DNA of 64,000 nt, taken from contig JACPDL010000003.1 of the NCBI GenBank assembly GCA_016184005.1, forward strand, positions 17,839-81,838, written 5' to 3'. Positions 2,161 through 53,894 of this stretch are shown piece by piece. Source of the stretch: Candidatus Aenigmatarchaeota archaeon. GTDB lineage: Archaea > Aenigmatarchaeota > Aenigmatarchaeia > GW2011-AR5. The notes below the pieces were generated by a model. It was given only the letters and a program-made list of their open reading frames with translations. It did not search any database and was not told where the DNA came from. Numbering within the stretch: the stretch's first letter is position 1; each line of letters begins with the position of its first letter. Made by a program: the position numbers and the translations under genes.

Positions 2161-3399
2161 ATGTCCGAACACGATGAAAACGTAGCAGCACACGTAGAAG
2201 AAATTATAGAGTCAGCTTCTAAACCTACTTCTGAAGCTGCTGTAGAGCCTGTCATTGATGCAAATCCTGCTCCAGCTGCTGCTCCGTTGCAAGAACACAC
2301 AGTTGATCATATTATAGCATCTGCTTCGAAGCCTGTTGCGCCGCCGATTGCAAGAAGGGGCGTAAGCTTTGACAACGTCATTGATTTTGAAGCCCACAAG
2401 GCGCGGATCGCAATTTTTGGCTGCGGAGGCGCTGGGAATAATACCGTCACGGCACTGACTGAAAAGGGCATAGATGGCGCATCGACGGTTGCAATAAACA
2501 CGGACGCAAAGCACCTTTACGTGAGCAAAGCACACAAGAAAGTGCTCATAGGAAAGAACCTGACACAAGGATTGGGTGCAGGCGGTTATCCGGAGGTAGG
2601 CAAAAACGCAGCACTTGAGAGCAAAGGAGAGCTCAGGGAATTGCTCAAAGGCGTTGATCTTGTTTTCATCACATGCGGCCTTGGAGGCGGTACAGGAACG
2701 GGTGCAGCCCCTGTCGTTGCACGGATTGCACGCGAAACAGGCGCAATTGTCATAGCAGCCGTGACGCTTCCATTCAAGCTGGAAGGCGCAAGAATTATCA
2801 AGGCAGAAGAAGGCCTTGTCAATCTGCGGCAGGCTTGTGACACGGTCATAGTCATAGAAAACCAGAGACTTCTGGAAATTGCAAAGGACATGCCTCTTAA
2901 GAAAGCGTTTGCAGTCGCTGATGATCTCATAGCCACGATGATAAAGGGCATATCAGAGACAATATCCCAGCCGTCCTTGGTAAACCTGGATTACGCAGAC
3001 GTAAAGGCGATAATGCATTCAAGCGGAGGGGTTGCTTCCATAGGTTTCGGAGAAAGCGATGGCGAAGACAGGGCATTTGAATGCATAAACAAGGCACTGA
3101 ACCATCCGCTGCTTGATGTCGATTACAACGGAGCGACAGGCGCACTTGTACAGGTTATCGGCGGCAACGACATGAGGCTGGATGAAATCAACCGCATAGG
3201 CGAAGTCGTGCAGGAACACCTCTCGCATGATGCGCAAGTAATCTGGGGCGCCCGTGTCCTGCCAGAACTACAGGGCAAGATCCAGGTCATAACCATAATT
3301 ACAGGCGTTAAATCACCATACATCCTTGGCCCTTTGTCCAGGGACGAGAAATCAAAAGTCAAGAAATCCCGGGAGCTCGGGATCGAGATAATAAAATAA
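2161..3399 (+). CDS. ftsZ: Cell division protein FtsZ
   Basis: GCGGAGNN, GLGGGTGTG tubulin signature, NLDYADV; acidic Pro/Ala-rich N-terminal extension. Confidence 0.97.
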   Translation: MSEHDENVAAHVEEIIESASKPTSEAAVEPVIDANPAPAAAPLQEHTVDHIIASASKPVAPPIARRGVSFDNVIDFEAHKARIAIFGCGGAGNNTVTALTEKGIDGASTVAINTDAKHLYVSKAHKKVLIGKNLTQGLGAGGYPEVGKNAALESKGELRELLKGVDLVFITCGLGGGTGTGAAPVVARIARETGAIVIAAVTLPFKLEGARIIKAEEGLVNLRQACDTVIVIENQRLLEIAKDMPLKKAFAVADDLIATMIKGISETISQPSLVNLDYADVKAIMHSSGGVASIGFGESDGEDRAFECINKALNHPLLDVDYNGATGALVQVIGGNDMRLDEINRIGEVVQEHLSHDAQVIWGARVLPELQGKIQVITIITGVKSPYILGPLSRDEKSKVKKSRELGIEIIK

Positions 3400-3516
3400 G
3401 CCCCTTTTCGCGGAGTGTATGACGCACTAAAGTGCGTCTAATCATTCGAAAAGGCCCTTGGGTTCAAAAGAAACTCCAAGGATCCTAATATATGAGAAAC
3501 AGGTGTTTTCTCACCA

Positions 3517-3616
3517 TTAGGAGAGAAGGTTGATACGTGCAAAGAGCAAAGCTCTTTGACGCGTCAGAGAACTTTCAGTTCTCTGCACGAGGAAGAGAAC
3601 CTAGGTTCTCGACTTA
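3517..3616 (+). repeat. Repeat family A, filled allele carrying a 54-nt twin-hairpin insert at 3536-3589
   Basis: Flanks join to the exact reverse complement of 28412-28456 and 52285-52330. Confidence 0.9.
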
Positions 3617-3739
3617 TGCTGACCACACCCCAAAGATAGGCAGTTGGTTTGACTGAAAAGCGCGAAAGCGTGATTTAGGCCTTGCCAACTGCCTACTCTT
3701 TCTTTTTTACAAAACTAGCGGAAGCTATGTCAAGAACTT

Positions 3740-3862
3740 TAAATGATATGCTCTTGATACTCCCACGACTAAAGTCGTGGGTTTCTGAGAGCATGTCATC
3801 CCAACATTGTTTATGTAATATCTGCTGTCTGAAGACAGCAGTTTTAAGCAATGTTGTGGATA
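3740..3862 (-). repeat. Repeat family B copy 1 (IS200/IS605-end-like hairpin cccacgactaaagtcgtggg) with a 30-nt hairpin insert at 3819-3848
   Basis: Aligns with 63197-63340 and 9562-9740 in reverse orientation. Confidence 0.85.
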
Positions 3863-3870
3863 AAGTTTTC

Positions 3871-5088
3871 TTAGATCAGCATTACTACAATCAGCAGCAA
3901 TGCGAAGCCGGCTGTGAATGCAAGGACTTTCTTTGCCAGTTTGCTTTGCCTGAAGAAGTAGATGGTTGCTATGTCGCCAAGCATGCCAGCGATGCTTGCA
4001 AGCACGATAGAAACGACGAATACCGGACTGCTTATCGCGCCCTGTGAAAACAGCAATGCCAACGATGCTGCAACCGCATAGCCGCTTCCCAGCCCGCCAA
4101 GAACGCTTATCGGTATCACTGCCTCAGGCGCATATGACACTGCCATGCGTGAAACAGCGAGCGTCAGGAAGAAAATCAGGCCGAGATAAAGGGCGGGTTT
4201 TATCGCGAATGGCGACTCGAAATCGCGGGTGAAGTTCTTCTTCGGGAATTTCCTGAGGAAGTAAAATGCGAAAAACAGATACAGCAGAGAAGCACCAATC
4301 AGGCCTGCAAAAAGCAGCATTGTCCCTGCCTGTTCTGTGAACAATGATGCCGCAACCATATTCCTTGCTGTCATTATGACAAAAGCAAGCAGCGAGGAGA
4401 ATGCAAACAGGTTAAGCAGCTTCTTGTTTTTCTTGTAATTCTGTATATTGGAAATGACAACAGCGGAAGAGCTGAAAATGCTGCCGAAGAAACTGGAAAG
4501 CATGACGCCTTTCTGCTCGCCGAAATGCCGCGTGGCAAGGAAGCCGGCAAATGAAACGACAGAAACTGCAAGAACAACTCCCCATGCCTCTCTGATGTTG
4601 ACGCCCAGCAGGACGTAGTCTGGCAGGAACGGGTAGATCACAAAAGCCAGGATTGCAAACTCCACGGCGTTAAGTATTTCTTTCTCCGAGAGATGGCGGA
4701 TATTTCCGACAAGCCTGTTTTTCGAGAAAAGCAGGAGAAATATTATTACTGAAGTCGCGATGGCTTCGCGATAAAACTCCAAAGCCACCATGGAGCCGAT
4801 AAAATACGTCAATATTATAGTGACAGAAGTGGTTAGTCCCGTGTGTGCCTGGGTTCTTGTCTTGTACCAGAACAGCGACACAGCCAAAGCGCTTGCAATA
4901 CCTATGCCCATGGCAAGAATAAGCGGCGAACCATACGTGAACGCAAAGAAAGTGGAGAGCATGCCGAACAGGCAGATGAAAGCTGCCGTGCGGACGCCAC
5001 TGCCCGGCCTGCCCTTGTGGTATTCCCTTTCTAGGCCGATGAAAGCGCCCAGGACAATACTGAGCAGGATTTTGTCCAGAAGCGGCAT
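3871..5088 (-). CDS. MgtC/SapB family membrane protein (DUF4010)
   Basis: IGLERE...GVRT...GLTT MgtC motifs plus multi-TM C-terminus. Confidence 0.88.
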   Translation of the reverse strand: MPLLDKILLSIVLGAFIGLEREYHKGRPGSGVRTAAFICLFGMLSTFFAFTYGSPLILAMGIGIASALAVSLFWYKTRTQAHTGLTTSVTIILTYFIGSMVALEFYREAIATSVIIFLLLFSKNRLVGNIRHLSEKEILNAVEFAILAFVIYPFLPDYVLLGVNIREAWGVVLAVSVVSFAGFLATRHFGEQKGVMLSSFFGSIFSSSAVVISNIQNYKKNKKLLNLFAFSSLLAFVIMTARNMVAASLFTEQAGTMLLFAGLIGASLLYLFFAFYFLRKFPKKNFTRDFESPFAIKPALYLGLIFFLTLAVSRMAVSYAPEAVIPISVLGGLGSGYAVAASLALLFSQGAISSPVFVVSIVLASIAGMLGDIATIYFFRQSKLAKKVLAFTAGFALLLIVVMLI

Positions 5089-14542: not shown

Positions 14543-17500
14543 CGCCTGTATCTGTATTTTCTCAAAAAGCGCAGCTTTTTGGAATTCTCAAAATGCAGAG
14601 CATTTTGGAATCTCGAAAAAACTTTGTTTTTTCGAAGATCTCGGAGAAGCTTCGCTTCTCCCAAGATTACACCCTTCTGTTTTTTACGGATTTTTCTTTT
14701 AGGCTTCTTCTTTAGGCGGAAAAAGACCAGCATGCCCGCAAGAATCACGACCCCGGCAACAGCCAGGCTGGTAGGGGAAGCCGCAACAAGGCCTGTGGGA
14801 CCTATAACCCCTGTCTGGTTTTTTTCAGCGGCAGTTTCGTTTGCAAGCGCCTGGCTTGCAGGCATGACGTTTGTTTTGTTTGTTGCAGGTGCGCCGTTTC
14901 CTGTTATATTTGCTGCAGATTTATGTGCCACGTTTGGCGTTGCATTGCTTAATGATGCATTAGTGAGATTTGGTTTTGCCTGCGGTGCAGGTCTCGCGCC
15001 CCCTCCACCGCCCGAATAGCCGCCTCCGGAAGCGGAAGGACTTGGGCTTGCTGGCGGGGTAAAGGTGAAGGCTATTGTGTTCTTGATTTCATTTCCTGAT
15101 GTATCATTTGCATACAGCACCAGCGTATTCGAGCCCTGGGACGCTGTTATTGTGGTGTTCGTGCAGCCTATAAGTGAAACATTGGAATCGTTGTTAAGCC
15201 TGTACACGCATCCATCAGCGGCAATATTGTCACTGGCAGTGTAATTAAGCGGAATTGACGATGAAGCGTATGTTGTGGATGCGACAGGAGACGTTATAGT
15301 CACATTAGGCGCCTGCGTGTCATTGCCTGCCGCCGCACCCGAGAATGAGGGCAGATAAAGCACTGAGGCATTTGTTGTCATGTTGTAGCAGGGCTTGTTT
15401 GTGAAATCTGCATTGCATGCGCTTTCAATCCTTGTTATGTCAGGCGCGTCTCGTGTGCCATTGAGATAGAAGTAAATGGCATAAACCTGCGGGAATGTTA
15501 TTTTTGCCGCGTAGCTGTTTTCAGGCAGGGCGCCGTTCATGTCTACCCACGCAAGCGAACCGAAGACGCCGCCGCTTTGACTGAAGGCGGACGACACACT
15601 TCCGGCGCCCTCTATGTCGTCTGCTATGCCCATCATATTAGACAGGTTGAGGGCTGATAAATTGAAATCGACTATTTCTATAAGCGTGCCTGTGAGGTTG
15701 AACCTCAGCGTGTAATTCTTTGCGGCATCCAGCGCTGAAACGCTGATCTCATTATCCGTTTCGAGGAATGTCATCGTTATGTTCCTTGCGGAAAGGCTTG
15801 CACTCAGGGAACCGAAATAGGACGTTACATTCTCCCTTGCCTTTATGAAAACAAGCACTTCTTGCGTGGCATTGAAATTGCCGGCCAGGTCTGCCAAGTA
15901 GGCCTTCAGCGTATAATTTCCGTCGCTCAGGTCCAGCGTTTTTGCCCATTCTTTCCCGCCGCCCGACATGCTTTCGTTGACAAAGTTGAGCTCAAGGACG
16001 GCCGAGGAAAGAGGCTCGCTTGCCGTCATGTTTATTGTTATCCGGCTTGTTTCGTGCGTTGTTCCGTTCAAAGGCGTGGGAGAAACAAAGCCAGCATCCG
16101 GCGGTATGCGGTCTATTGATGCTGACATCATGAAAGAATTTGCAGTGTTGCCGGCGAGGTCTGTTGTTTCGAAGTAAAAGCTGATTGTAGTGTTGTGCTG
16201 CAATGAAGTGAGGTTTATAAGAATGCTGCAGTTCCTTGTTCCTGAAAGGCATGCCATGCTGGTATTTGTGAAGTTCTGCGCCGCCCCCCAATAGAGGTTT
16301 GCGCGTCGCAGGTGCATTTCGCTGTACGACAATGAAAAATTCTCATTCAGGCCCCGCATGAAGGTGTTGTTTGCCGGCGAGAGTGCCAGAATCACCGGAG
16401 GCCTTGTATCAAGCGTTATATTCAGCGTCTCAGTTGCCGTGTTGCCTGCAGAATCGTTTGCGTGGATCCTGTAGTTATAAGTCCCGTCATCAGCTGTCTT
16501 GTTGGCGGTGCATGACACCAATGTCCCGTTGTTCAGTTTCACCATCGTCTGGTTTGTCCCGTTCCATTCCAGGATGCAGGCAGAAATGTTTGTTAAGTCC
16601 GAAACACTCACATTGATAAAAATGTAGTTTCTGCTGACAAAAGAATTGTTTACATCTGCTGAAACAATGCTTATAGTTGGTTTTACTGTGTCAATTGTGA
16701 AAATGACTGTTTGCGATGTTGCGTTATTCCTGCTCTGATCGCTGCATGTTACATTAAGCGGATAAGTTCCGTCAGATAGGTTGAGAATATATGAATTTTG
16801 AACCCCAGATGTTGCATTGCCTAAATTTATTTTAGTGCCATTAAGGTTGCGCGAGCATTCCTGCTCTAGATTAAGATCGTCAATAGCTGTAAAGTTGACG
16901 ATTATGTTGTTTTTGTTCAGGAAACTATTGTTAACAGGCCCTGTCAAGTCGACCGATGGAGAAATATTGTCGACGAACTTGTCAGATAGCGTGAAACTTG
17001 AGGTGATGTTATAAGCTGTATTCGCTGAAAGGCTTGATGGAACAAGCCTTGCGGTCCACATTCCAGCCGAGGCGTTAATTGAAACATTGATATGATTAGT
17101 TCGACTCGTGGAAAAAACAGAATTTCCTGAAGTGTTGTAGAGGCCCAACTGAATTGATGCATTGTCAATCCAGCCAATACTCATGCTCAGGAGCGAGTTG
17201 TTTGTTGTATTAATTCTATAATAAGAAATGCCTCCTAAAGTGTTGTTTGTGAAAAACACCTCGCCGAAAGGCAAGAAATTCGAAGCTATTGAATACTTTG
17301 CACTTCCACTTACGGTTGTTGGCAGGACCAATATGTTCCAGTAACCACTTACAGGGTTGGTGACTTTTATCATTTCTTCTGTTTGCAGCACAGAAGCCGA
17401 TGATTTTACAATAGCGCCTGATGGATCCAGAAGTTGTAAGTCGAGATTCTGGTGCACTGAGTAATTCTCAGACCAGTAAACTGTTGCGCGTATTTCTGAA

Positions 17501-24449: not shown

Positions 24450-24815
24450 ATGCCAACAGCAGGTCAGCTTGGACTTAGAAAAGGTGATGTTGTCCGTCTC
24501 GCTACAGTCTACAAAGAATTTGCCGCTTCAGATTTAGCAGGTAATCCGTATTCTGTCAGAAGACTGATGGGCCTTGACATGACCGGAGGGCCAAGGGTTG
24601 AAGTCATAGAAACTCATGTTCGTCATCCAAGCGCTAAAGGATTCTATACTAGAGTTATGTATATTCTCAAAAAGCGCAGCTTTTTGGAATCTCGGAGAAG
24701 CTTCGCTTCTCCCAAGATAGATGACGACCCATATTCAGGAACATTATCAGAAGAGTTGGGATATATCTGGGAAAGGTTTGAAGGTTTCGTGGGACCTGTA
24801 GAAAGATTAAAGTGA
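24450..24815 (+). CDS. Hypothetical protein containing an in-frame 54-nt palindromic insert
   Basis: ORF stays open through 24664-24717. Confidence 0.65.
   Translation: MPTAGQLGLRKGDVVRLATVYKEFAASDLAGNPYSVRRLMGLDMTGGPRVEVIETHVRHPSAKGFYTRVMYILKKRSFLESRRSFASPKIDDDPYSGTLSEELGYIWERFEGFVGPVERLK
24664..24717 (+). mobile_element. Family D 54-nt twin-hairpin unit
   Basis: ttctcaaaaagc-GCA-gctttttggaa + tctcggagaagc-TTC-gcttctcccaaga. Confidence 0.88.
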
Positions 24816-28411: not shown

Positions 28412-28456
28412 TAAGTCGAGAACCTAGGTTCTCTTCCTTATCAACCTTCTCTCCTA
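28412..28456 (-). repeat. Repeat family A, empty allele; begins at the PIN gene stop codon
   Basis: Identical to 52285-52329; contains the gagaacctaggttctc palindrome. Confidence 0.9.
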
Positions 28457-28810
28457 TTCTTCAGTCAGGAGTTTCCATTGCCTTAATCGGATTATTTTGA
28501 TATTATGCCTTTTTAAGCTTTGTATAAGTATCCTGTCGTTTGTGGCAACAGGGCAGTTATTTTTCACTGCATAGTCCAGAATCGCGCTGTCCGGATTTCC
28601 TTCCGCACTGACTACCTTCACGTTGTTTTCAGCCAACCCAAGCGCTACTTTCGCATGAACAGCCGGCTTGCCTTTTCCTTTTGCAATCTTTTTGAGCTCC
28701 TTGATGCATTGCACCGTCGTCAGAAATTCATGCCCTTTGAGCCTGCTGTATATATCAACCTTATGCTGCGCAGGGAGCATGAGAAAATTAGTATCGAGAA
28801 GCAGTTTCAT
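28454..28810 (-). CDS. PIN-domain protein (Fcf1-like)
   Basis: LLDTNFL, D.AIL, VATND; usual neighbour of rpoE'. Confidence 0.88.
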   Translation of the reverse strand: MKLLLDTNFLMLPAQHKVDIYSRLKGHEFLTTVQCIKELKKIAKGKGKPAVHAKVALGLAENNVKVVSAEGNPDSAILDYAVKNNCPVATNDRILIQSLKRHNIKIIRLRQWKLLTEE

Positions 28811-50982: not shown

Positions 50983-52284
50983 ATGCCATACGAATTCAGG
51001 TTTCCCGATGTTGGCGAGGGCATAACAGAAGGTGAGATAGTAAAATGGCGCGTGAAGGAAGGAGATACTGTTAAGGAACATGATGTCATCGCCGAGATAG
51101 AAACAGACAAGGCAATAGTCCAGATACCTTCGCCAAAGAGCGGCAAAATAGCAAAACTCCATCATCGTGAAGGCGATACCATTCACGTAGGAGAAACGCT
51201 CGCGACTATCGCTGAAGAGAATGAGCAGCTTATTTCTTCCACGGAAAAATCCATTGAAATGCCGAAACAGCAGAAAGGTGTCGCTGTTGTCGGCCAGCTT
51301 GAAGAAGCAGCAGATATAGAGCCTGCTGTGAAACAGCCCACGGCTAAGCCAGCCGTAAATGCAGCAAAGCAGGTTACCGGCAAGATGGCTGAAGTGCTGC
51401 CGGCTGTAAGGAGGCTTGCAAGAGAGCTTAATGCCGACATTTCAAGCGTAAAAGGAACAGGGAAAGACGGACGAATAACAGAGGAAGACGTCAGGCAGTC
51501 TTCTCAAGCAGCAGAAAAAAAAAGCGAAGAAGTACAAGAACAGTCTCTTGTCAGGATAGAAAGAAAATACGATATGTACGGTTATGTTGAGCGTGTGCCG
51601 TTGAAAGGCATCAGAAAAGCAACAGCGAAGAACATGGTGAAGTCCATGTTCACAGCGCCGCATGTGACACACATGGATGAAGCTGACGTCACAGAACTTT
51701 CAGCAATTCGCGAAAAAGAAAAGGCAAAAGCTGAAAAGAGCGGCATAAAACTGACTTTCCTGCCGTTCGTCGTGAAGGCAGCTGTCGCTGCGCTGAAGGC
51801 GCATCCATACATGAACGCAAGCATGGATGATGAGCATGGCGAAATAATACTGAAAAGCTACTACAATATCGGCATAGCTATTGACACTACAGACGGCCTG
51901 ATAGTTCCTGTCATCAAGGAAGCAAGCGAAAAAACAATCCTGGAGATAGCAAAAGAAATACAAAAATTTTCTGAAGCCGCTAAGGACAGGAAAATAGATC
52001 TTGCTGACATGAAAGGAGGCACGTTTACCATAACAAACGTCGGCTCTGTGGGCGGTCTGCATGCAACGCCAATAATAAACTGGCCCGAGGCGGCAATAAT
52101 TGCGACTGGACGCATATACGACAAGGCTGTCGTAGCCGGTAAAAAAATTGTTGCAAGAAAGATGATGCCTCTTTCCGTTTCATTTGATCACCGCATAGTC
52201 GATGGCGTAGAAGCAGCCAGGTTCACAAACACGCTGAAAGAGCACTTGGAAGATCCTGAATTGCTGTTGATTGAGGGACGATAA
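50983..52284 (+). CDS. pdhC: Dihydrolipoamide acyltransferase E2
   Basis: ETDKA lipoyl site, GTG..GRI, FDHRIVDG. Confidence 0.95.
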   Translation: MPYEFRFPDVGEGITEGEIVKWRVKEGDTVKEHDVIAEIETDKAIVQIPSPKSGKIAKLHHREGDTIHVGETLATIAEENEQLISSTEKSIEMPKQQKGVAVVGQLEEAADIEPAVKQPTAKPAVNAAKQVTGKMAEVLPAVRRLARELNADISSVKGTGKDGRITEEDVRQSSQAAEKKSEEVQEQSLVRIERKYDMYGYVERVPLKGIRKATAKNMVKSMFTAPHVTHMDEADVTELSAIREKEKAKAEKSGIKLTFLPFVVKAAVAALKAHPYMNASMDDEHGEIILKSYYNIGIAIDTTDGLIVPVIKEASEKTILEIAKEIQKFSEAAKDRKIDLADMKGGTFTITNVGSVGGLHATPIINWPEAAIIATGRIYDKAVVAGKKIVARKMMPLSVSFDHRIVDGVEAARFTNTLKEHLEDPELLLIEGR

Positions 52285-52330
52285 TAAGTCGAGAACCTAG
52301 GTTCTCTTCCTTATCAACCTTCTCTCCTAA
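52285..52330 (-). repeat. Repeat family A, empty allele directly after the pdhC stop
   Basis: Identical to 28412-28456. Confidence 0.9.
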
Positions 52331-53738: not shown

Positions 53739-53894
53739 TAGGAAAGAGGTGTAGAGAGGAGATCTGCAAAGAACATAGTTCTTCTTGCAGAAACCTTTGG
53801 TTTCTGAAGACTCAGGAAAGCTTTGCTTTCCTCGAGTTGAGACCTCAGAGAACTTTTAGTTCTCTGCAGAAAACCCTAGGTTTTCTCCTTCTTA
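53739..53894 (+). mobile_element. Three-level nest: A-like hairpin > 54-nt unit > 54-nt unit
   Basis: Removing 53783-53836 and then the rest of 53763-53870 restores a perfect hairpin at each step. Confidence 0.82.

Follow-up and report, generated by a model that had tools for sequence, protein, structure and literature searches.

A 54-nt double-hairpin cassette splits an intergenic repeat in an Aenigmatarchaeota genome and probably belongs to a superfamily of very small mobile elements

The window analysed here is a stretch of 64,000 nt from a Candidatus Aenigmatarchaeota archaeon, corresponding to bases 17839-81838 of contig 4 (C4) of a genome (G000) of 919,184 bp in 5 contigs, whose small-subunit (SSU) gene scores 1066 bits with an archaeal model and 766 bits with a bacterial model. 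Near its left end two convergent open reading frames (ORFs), one FtsZ-like (2161-3399, + strand) and one MgtC/DUF4010 (3871-5088, - strand), enclose a spacer of 471 nt in which ARAGORN finds no tRNA, and which holds a copy of a small repeat that we refer to as repeat A. This copy, at 3517-3616, consists of a 19-nt left arm (L) and a 27-nt right arm (R), split by exactly 54 nt as determined by direct reading and by cutting the sequence by script. The 54 nt, designated variant v1, form a double-hairpin cassette, and the features of the cassette and of the repeat that holds it are listed in Table 1. The filled window copy adjoins no stop codon.

An earlier note, made from the window sequence alone, had proposed that the same repeat stands uninterrupted at two other places and that the 54 nt are a clean insertion. 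A pattern search finds the arms joined at 28412-28456 and 52285-52329 (both - strand), and 40-60 nt apart only at 3518-3616 (+ strand), with 0 matches for either arrangement in 100 dinucleotide-preserving shuffles; together with direct reading this bears out the split and the two joined copies, and the two hairpins, the central palindrome GACGCGTC and the ends CGTGCA and TGCACG are all as the note described them. As single-stranded DNA, v1 is predicted to fold into two hairpins (-18.1 kcal/mol, z -5.9, on either strand), and an empty copy of repeat A hardly folds (z about -1.2). Since the junctions of v1 (GATA^CGTG...CACG^AGGA, with ^ marking the boundary) have not one base in common there is no target duplication, again in agreement with the note. 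Both empty copies are located at stop codons, as had also been stated: the TAG of a PIN_9 ORF (28454-28810, - strand) lies inside the L arm of one, and the TAA of a 2-oxoacid dehydrogenase E2 ORF (50983-52284, + strand) immediately precedes the TAA of the element itself in the other. The term that does not stand is "alleles", which is a misnomer because paralogous copies from separate loci are being compared; four metagenome runs yielded no allele of the window locus with an empty A.

Table 1. Coordinates, in the window, of repeat A, cassette v1 and related elements
Feature	Position	Strand	Description
Left extension of the unit	3483-3516	+	TAATAT box at 3486-3491; extra 19-nt hairpin at 3494-3512, between box and L
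L arm of repeat A	3517-3535	+	TTAGGAGAGAAGGTTGATA; purine-rich; TAG at bases 2-4; terminal TTGATA
54-nt double-hairpin cassette, variant v1	3536-3589	+	Ends CGTGCA/TGCACG; central palindrome GACGCGTC
Hairpin 1 of v1	3536-3561	+	8-bp inner stem CAAAGAGC/GCTCTTTG; loop AAA; one unpaired base, then 3-bp outer stem
Hairpin 2 of v1	3562-3589	+	9-bp inner stem CAGAGAACT/AGTTCTCTG; loop TTC; one unpaired base, then 3-bp outer stem
R arm of repeat A	3590-3616	+	AGGAAGAGAACCTAGGTTCTCGACTTA; AGGAAG, perfect palindrome GAGAACCTAGGTTCTC (3595-3610), GACTTA; end on the opposite strand is TAA
Class-I 108-nt four-hairpin element, hairpin span	14563-14661	+	Present in the window, absent in G001
Class-I 54-nt cassette, hairpin span	24668-24712	+	Hairpins CAAAAAGC and GGAGAAGC; same superfamily
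Empty repeat A copy (first L base included)	28412-28457	-	PIN_9 gene stop TAG within L arm; H+-pyrophosphatase gene start 19 nt past the R end
Empty repeat A copy (first L base included)	52285-52330	-	Directly after the TAA of an E2 acyltransferase (pdhC-like) gene; lipoate-ligase-like gene start 60 nt past the L arm
108-nt four-hairpin insert (54 in 54)	53760-53867	+	In a sister box of A' type, GGAGA^...^GAAAACCCTAGGTTTTCTCC; absent at the orthologous place in G001; 3-nt junction ambiguity

A scan of G000 for the arms yields 26 copies of repeat A, of which 8 are empty and 15 carry an insert exactly at the junction of L and R (GATA^AGGA, referred to as site 1); in two others L and R are joined and the central palindrome of R is swapped for a longer hairpin, and one copy is odd. 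The site-1 inserts in G000 are 54 nt (nine copies), 56 nt (four) or 52 nt (two) long, and although some cassette is present at the same junction in all 15, these represent 12 distinct sequences with at least six types of hairpin 1. Counting three further inserts from the sister genome (G001) and one from an outgroup genome of the same genus (G002), the 19 site-1 inserts have 15 distinct sequences, put together as mosaics from six types of hairpin 1 and five of hairpin 2; hairpin-2 type alpha, for example, is found paired with three types of hairpin 1. All 15 contain two subterminal hairpins, which are alike within a cassette, each with one unpaired base, and the pairing of the outer stem of hairpin 1 is kept by compensatory changes (CGTG/CGTG, CCTTG/CGAGG, GGTT/GACC, CTT/GAG). 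The cassette v1 has a single full-length copy in G000. A diverged relative (35 of 37 nt identical by BLAST) is located at C4:378540-378620, at the equivalent point of a related box, and differs by a compensatory stem change and a flipped loop. The family-wide tabulation thus upholds the insertion reading of the earlier note, since v1 is found in only one of the 26 copies and it is not so that most copies carry the 54 nt; one insertion point is shared by 15 of the 26, and the proposed association with stop codons turns out to be frequent but not universal (12 of 26 at the R end, 4 of 26 at the L end).

Hairpins of this kind are abundant elsewhere in G000, which has 507 perfect hairpins whose stems have 8 bp or more, compared with 69 after shuffling, many of them in arrays of 2-9; ten of 97 arrays with at least two perfect hairpins are located within ORFs that read through them. 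One hairpin type has its loop as TTC in some cassettes and as GAA in others of the same orientation (for example window 24694-24712 and G000 C4:189051-189069), and this, together with the flip between v1 and its relative at C4:378540-378620, suggests from sequence comparison that loop inversion may be frequent at small palindromes. The central palindrome of the R arm is likewise exchangeable (window 28412-28457; G000 C4:253344; G001 loci L058 and L084), with orthologous boxes in G001 carrying the other R-arm hairpins CTTTCTTttgaAAGAAAG and GGAAAACCGTAGGTTTTAC, and one box having 15 extra nt within L.

Comparison with the sister and outgroup genomes, whose flanks are mostly 88-99% (G001) and about 77-83% (G002) identical to those of G000, indicates how rapidly the contents of the boxes change. 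Seventeen of the 26 copies could be placed in G001 by their flanks: repeat A is absent from eight of these places, nine have A or a sister box with a different fill, and in none is the state the same, even though the flanks of the nine shared loci are 81-99% identical. The empty copy at window 52285-52330 is among those lacking in G001. Eleven records of repeat A in G001 include five that are empty (two with one common flank), three filled at GATA^AGGA, and three in which another 54-nt cassette is positioned 5-7 nt further on, at AGGAT[GA]^GAGAACC; in G002 four of six copies are empty or near-empty and two are filled. At C4:542515 only a degenerate remnant (TAAGTTGAGAAC...) is present in G002, A without a cassette in G001 and A with one in G000, a distribution which, as read from the three sequences, identifies the cassette as a gain in G000. 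At C4:398097, G002 lacks A, G000 has variant v2 at GATA^AGGA, and G001 has a different 54-nt cassette at AGGAT[GA]^...^GAGAACC; because these two cassettes differ in both sequence and point of insertion, the two gains are most simply independent. Three different contents are seen at C4:530382, where G000 has A with variant v4, G001 a sister box with four hairpins, and G002 A with v1, a further two-hairpin cassette of 52-53 nt being nested inside hairpin 1 of the latter.

A competing interpretation is that the long form is ancestral and that the 46-nt form arose by precise deletion of the hairpins through replication slippage. Filled copies do outnumber empty ones (15 to 8 among the 26), direct repeats of 5-27 nt border several of the indels that separate G000 from G001, such that repeat-mediated deletion evidently operates in these genomes, and repeat-mediated loss of the core has been described for the palindrome-associated transposable elements (PATEs) of Haloquadratum (PMC3119063). 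However, the filled copies hold 12 different sequences with v1 among them only once, the v1 junction lacks flanking repeats by which a loss could be mediated, both outgroup and sister lack a cassette at C4:542515, and one orthologous box holds two different cassettes at two different points. Moreover, a 30-mer spanning the joined arms is present in 8 of 70 genomes of the order, of which the three from this genus have 9, 5 and 3 copies and five others one or two copies each, with 2-3 mismatches, these five belonging to four other genera of the family and to another family; a reversed control pattern gave 0 matches, as did a scan of viral contigs for the empty junction. Because of this distribution we take the short form to be old and widespread and not a local deletion product, and we regard wholesale deletion as highly improbable. 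One empty copy, at G000 C4:166628-166680 and absent at G001 locus L088, has TTTTAATTAG on both sides, an arrangement that either insertion at a matching core or loss between direct repeats could explain.

The history of the window copy itself is somewhat different from that of a cassette entering a resident box. In G001, 18 other bases stand in place of window 3399-3618, and contigs from three runs of other studies show the same form lacking 3399-3618. A rarer population form lacks exactly 3483-3618, with a joint from 3482 to 3619 plus 14 other letters (runs X7 and X8), these joints being short-sided; the sides of metagenome joints at this locus measure 21-29 letters and we relied on them only where G001 agrees. 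A run of a further study has the window form, identical over 2900-3786. G001 contains an identical 100-nt composite of A and v1 at a place not orthologous to the window locus, within the intron-like gap of a tRNA(CAU)-like sequence; G000 cleanly lacks a 111-nt block there (gataa^tgaga), and a metagenome scan for the v1 core recovered only two contigs, both at the G001-type tRNA-like locus. Because the identical composite sits non-orthologously in G001, the window copy was most likely filled before it came to its locus, and the sequences suggest that the filled box can move as a unit.

The tRNA-like sequence in G001 (contig C36, locus L032, about 1230-1760, - strand) is broken after the anticodon loop by an intron-like gap of more than 200 nt that contains hairpin modules as well as the composite of A and v1. 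It is not called as a gene by ARAGORN, with three tRNA-like flanks tried, or by Rfam, which gives nothing near threshold, and the tRNA-like assignments are based on reading of the sequence. The window spacer has one further repeated component, a repeat of about 124 nt (3740-3863) positioned just before the end of the MgtC-like gene; it has six further copies in the genome with 95-97% identity, and its summed contig depth is very high in four metagenome runs.

Cassettes of the same general form are not confined to repeat A. Alignment of about 495 kb of G001 to G000 (from 676 kb fetched) gave 170 indels of at least 20 nt, 91 of them clean. Among the clean ones two sizes stand out, 53-55 nt (12 indels) and 108 nt (8 indels), and it is sometimes G000 and sometimes G001 that has the additional copy. 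The element of 108 nt is made up of one 54-nt cassette whose linker holds another, and this inner cassette is polymorphic by itself; members of both sizes are present in the window (Table 1). Cassettes of class I have junction overlaps of 0-8 nt that always match the element's own end (...CAAGAT[TC]), a single larger BLAST overlap of 15 nt being by eye one shared base, and when the junctions are read by eye they mostly follow AT, ATT or ATC. The class-I hairpin GGAGAAGC is present 24 times in G000, 28 times in G001, twice in G002 and 0-3 times elsewhere among 70 genomes. Class-II cassettes in a second box follow ..AAA, and other cassettes at box sites show 0-3 nt of junction ambiguity. The same cassette classes recur elsewhere: G001 has them at AGGAT[GA]^GAGAACC, G002 has them within hairpin 1, and they are also present in boxes of A', A'' and B types. 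Related cassettes of 54 and 108 nt are polymorphic in unique sequence. The 16S rRNA gene of G000 (C5:67898-70520) extends over about 2.6 kb. An array of three hairpins is located within it at C5:68606-68681, and a large insert lies between approximate positions 69640 and 70440; the true 3' end of the gene is ...GGATCACCTCCT.

Homologous recombination could in principle account for much of this, with cassettes spreading among A copies by gene conversion via the 19-nt and 27-nt arms and the window copy being a converted or relocated box. Variant v4 is always accompanied by the arm variants GAGGAGG, GATC and AGGATG (4 of 4 full copies), the orthologous pair at G000 C4:369955 (empty) and G001:C56 (filled with v2) also differs in arm bases adjacent to the junction, and the mosaic site-1 cassettes, such as those in which hairpin-2 type alpha is combined with three hairpin-1 types, are likewise in favour of conversion; the G002 orthologue of C4:369955 is not identifiable, the region consisting entirely of repeats. 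Because arm variants travel with v4 and half-cassettes are shuffled, gene conversion explains part of the pattern without transposition. It cannot, however, create first insertions or new sites, and the cassette classes are not limited to one box or one point; 54- and 108-nt cassettes are polymorphic in unique sequence, some hairpin arrays in through-reading ORFs lack homologous arms, and at C4:542515 and C4:389522 the arms are identical between empty and filled orthologues. Gene conversion between boxes clearly contributes, yet cannot yield new sites or insertions into unique sequence, and as the sole explanation we consider it unlikely, if the best of the rivals to insertion by mobile cassettes.

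We also determined how repeat A is placed relative to genes. At the R end an ORF of at least 80 codons stops on, or no more than 12 nt before, the TAA of the element in 12 of the 26 copies, and at the L end an ORF stops by way of the TAG in L, or just before L, in four. On the L side, 11 copies are followed at 7-60 nt by the start of a gene that points away from the box, and three copies have a gene start beyond R. The hexamer TAATAT is located within 16 nt of L in 17 of the 26 copies (compared with 0.3% of random 16-mers), the window copy being one of the nine without it. Repeat A thus lies mostly between the stop of one gene and the start of the next, with an AT-rich promoter-like box on the L side, and the TAATAT box is a putative promoter. 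Both orientations relative to the flanking genes are represented, as illustrated by the PIN-to-pyrophosphatase and E2-to-lipoate-ligase copies. The L arm includes a Shine-Dalgarno-like AGGAGGT complementary to the 3' end of 16S rRNA. In AGGATG copies, such as that at G000 C2:7592-7637, a three-codon ORF (ATG AGA ACC TAG) begins at an ATG located 9 nt further on.

These placements raise the possibility that repeat A and its variable hairpins constitute a functional structured RNA or a regulatory leader or trailer, with the hairpins as selected expansion segments. The preservation of hairpins by compensatory change would be expected of such an RNA, as would arms that hardly vary between species with flanks of 77-83% identity and that recur in other genera, and the positions of gene stops, gene starts and TAATAT boxes and the match of AGGAGGT to the 16S 3' end point in the same direction. 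Against this, no Rfam family matches at threshold (best 20.4 bits, with a gathering score of 39.8), the same hairpins are kept at none of the nine shared sister loci and eight of the 17 placed copies are absent, cassettes are also present in the intron-like gap of the tRNA-like sequence with some hairpin arrays in through-reading ORFs, and the orientation of the box relative to flanking genes goes both ways. We consider a selected RNA or regulatory function improbable as an explanation of the cassettes, only slightly less so than deletion, and note that box A may nonetheless have a regulatory side effect.

Three familiar categories were rejected for the cassette. An archaeal bulge-helix-bulge (BHB) intron does not fit because the flanks are both purine-rich on the + strand and pyrimidine-rich on the - strand such that they cannot pair as BHB exons, the ends of the cassette pairing only with each other. 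By reading, the RUGAUGA box and the C/C' boxes that a C/D-box small RNA would have are absent. A classical miniature inverted-repeat transposable element (MITE) would duplicate a constant number of target bases, which is not seen here, overlaps at the junctions ranging from 0 to 8 nt; two larger BLAST overlaps, of 11 and 15 nt, were taken as local similarity.

The best joint explanation of these data is that v1 is one member of a superfamily of non-coding, non-autonomous, mobile double-hairpin cassettes of about 54 nt, which we think probable, though by no means assured. The direction of insertion, the presence of several cassettes at one site, nesting, the quantised sizes, the rapid turnover between sister genomes and the retention of hairpins by compensatory change are all shown by the sequence comparisons. 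Repeat A would then be a portable intergenic box of 46 nt, capped by a stop codon at each end and usually with TAATAT beside its L arm. Cassettes would insert into it, and into other landing points specific to their class, without target duplication, here at GATA^AGGA, and would nest within each other so that 54 and 54 nt give 108 nt. A plausible mechanism is that an enzyme acting in trans recognises the folded single-stranded hairpins, as in the 'peel-and-paste' transposition of IS200/IS605 insertion sequences (ISs) and as for PATEs and the hairpin-forming doublets of REP (repetitive extragenic palindromic) sequences known as REPINs, with recombination between box copies probably also spreading the cassettes. 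The lack of duplication, the two alike subterminal hairpins and the class-specific landing points are a fit to a single-strand mechanism.

A candidate source of such an enzyme would be the Y1 (IS200/IS605-type) transposases. In G000, matches to PF01797 are present at three contig ends, as C-terminal fragments only, whereas G001 has three full-length genes; counting G000, 11 of 41 relatives have matches. Six of the 10 contig ends of G000 are the two ends of one multi-copy IS of the IS200/IS605 type (the C2 start and the C3 and C4 ends; the C1, C3 and C5 starts), the assembly breaking at this IS such that its transposase gene is not assembled in full, and the IS end consists of the transposase C-terminus followed by hairpin CCACCGTA..TACGGTGG and TCAATTTAAA. 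Elements of 131-134 nt with CCACC hairpins insert after TTCAT and end in TTGAT, and each is found in just one of the two sister genomes (G000 C4:260282-260407; G001 locus L054:5181-5311); these show classical PATE behaviour and are distinct from the 54-nt cassettes. Repeat A has TTGAT or TTCAT plus one base at the end of its L arm, and this precedes all 19 tabulated site-1 inserts and the nested copy in G002:C33.

Several observations weigh against the proposal of mobile cassettes moved by such an enzyme. Y1 genes are patchy (11 of 41 genomes) and none was found in G002, even though it carries filled A copies. The hairpins at the ends of the resident IS, and those beside seven Y1 genes in relatives (two in G001, and one each in G023, G020, G010, G034 and G021), are of CCACC type, otherwise GC-rich, or not evident; no purine-rich stem like the CAGARR...YYTCTG of the cassettes is among them. 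No TnpB-type domain (PF07282) is found in G000, and class-I cassettes have no evident strand bias on C4, the largest contig, where GC skew is weak. For the window locus the four metagenome runs contain no excision circle, intermediate or empty-A allele. The signs of recombination set out above (the co-variation of arm variants with v4, the shuffled half-cassettes, and the differing arms beside the cassette at the G001:C56 and C4:369955 pair) count in the same direction, and all of the genomes are metagenome assemblies, G001 being 84% and G002 91% complete. Insertion and mobility as such have good odds nonetheless, while for a Y1-type mechanism we would allow only about one chance in three, because the IS hairpins do not match, Y1 genes are patchy and no strand bias was seen. 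A broader proposal, which we put forward tentatively and with somewhat less confidence still, is that DPANN archaea of the Aenigmatarchaeota type may harbour a previously undescribed class of self-nesting mobile DNA, composed of double hairpins of about 54 nt with class-specific, stop-capped landing-pad boxes, and moved by a single-strand recombinase that would recognise hairpins and be other than the recognisable resident IS transposase.

If the mobile-cassette reading is right, these 54-nt cassettes would be among the smallest mobile units known, and units that nest inside each other. They would turn over more rapidly than any other component of these very small genomes, no shared box having the same content in the two sisters, and they would provide a tractable case for studying how hairpin-only elements are recognised and moved in archaea, a matter left 'enigmatic' by the work on Haloquadratum. 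If cassette traffic is real it would also retune the spacing and expression of neighbouring genes in regulator-poor genomes, because the pads lie between a stop codon and the next promoter-like box. Cassettes could serve as high-resolution strain markers for uncultured DPANN populations. They also call for caution in annotation, as they are present in long intron-like gaps of tRNA-like sequences that are missed by ARAGORN and Rfam, inside a 16S gene, and in frame in proteins.

Miniature hairpin repeats located at gene borders or in frame are familiar from the Rickettsia palindromic elements (RPEs) and the Correia elements of Neisseria, and can contribute promoter-like signals. Inverted terminal repeats and a duplication of TA characterise the Correia elements, and RPEs exceed 100 nt; to our knowledge 54-nt self-nesting units are not known for either. 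Searches of the literature for repeats in DPANN or Aenigmarchaeota brought up no account of such cassettes. One survey reports a high density of MITEs in some DPANN genomes (PMC11602168).

Two close parallels are archaeal. The terminal-only 52-bp PATEs of Haloquadratum walsbyi derive from transposons of the IS200/IS605 type and, as far as the excerpts of that paper extend, share with the cassettes an archaeal host, a length of about 52-54 nt, lack of coding capacity, two similar near-terminal palindromes, the absence of target duplication, differences in presence between strains, and mutual nesting (PMC3119063). PATEs have palindromes similar to those of resident transposons of the IS605 type, a likeness not seen for the cassette hairpins, and v1 has 6-nt inverted termini in addition to its hairpins, whereas PATEs have near-terminal palindromes and no inverted terminal repeats. 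A fixed landing point in another small repeat and the quantisation into 54 and 108 nt are features of the cassettes that these excerpts do not describe for PATEs (PMC3119063). The SMR-A repeats of Haloquadratum (HqIRS42/43/55), whose mobilisation is called 'enigmatic' there, are also duplication-free small repeats that insert preferentially at or near palindromes of other small mobile elements; compared by description only, they differ from the cassettes in their length of about 110 bp and their prominent inverted terminal repeats (PMC3119063, in part).

REPINs, which are mobilised by REP-associated tyrosine transposases (RAYTs), that is, single-copy Y1 transposases (Bertels & Rainey 2011, PMC3116915), resemble the cassettes, to the extent covered by the available parts of that account, in having a doublet of short palindromes as the replicative unit, predicted hairpins in single-stranded DNA, a non-autonomous and extragenic character, and a population-like evolution within lineages. 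A REPIN-like, mirror-symmetric frame is seen in v1 only (CGTGCA..TGACG and CGTCA..TGCACG); in v2-v5 both unpaired bases are on the 3' arm, which corresponds to a direct orientation unlike that of REPINs. REPINs are described in bacteria and consist of two inverted REPs forming one long hairpin (PMC3116915, in part), whereas the minimum-free-energy fold of v1 has two separate hairpins, and in the flanks read here no Y1 gene was seen beside hairpins of CAGARR type, as a RAYT-like gene would be. By analogy with these systems, the cassettes are best read as candidate non-autonomous hairpin elements of a PATE- or REPIN-like kind that would insert without target duplication.

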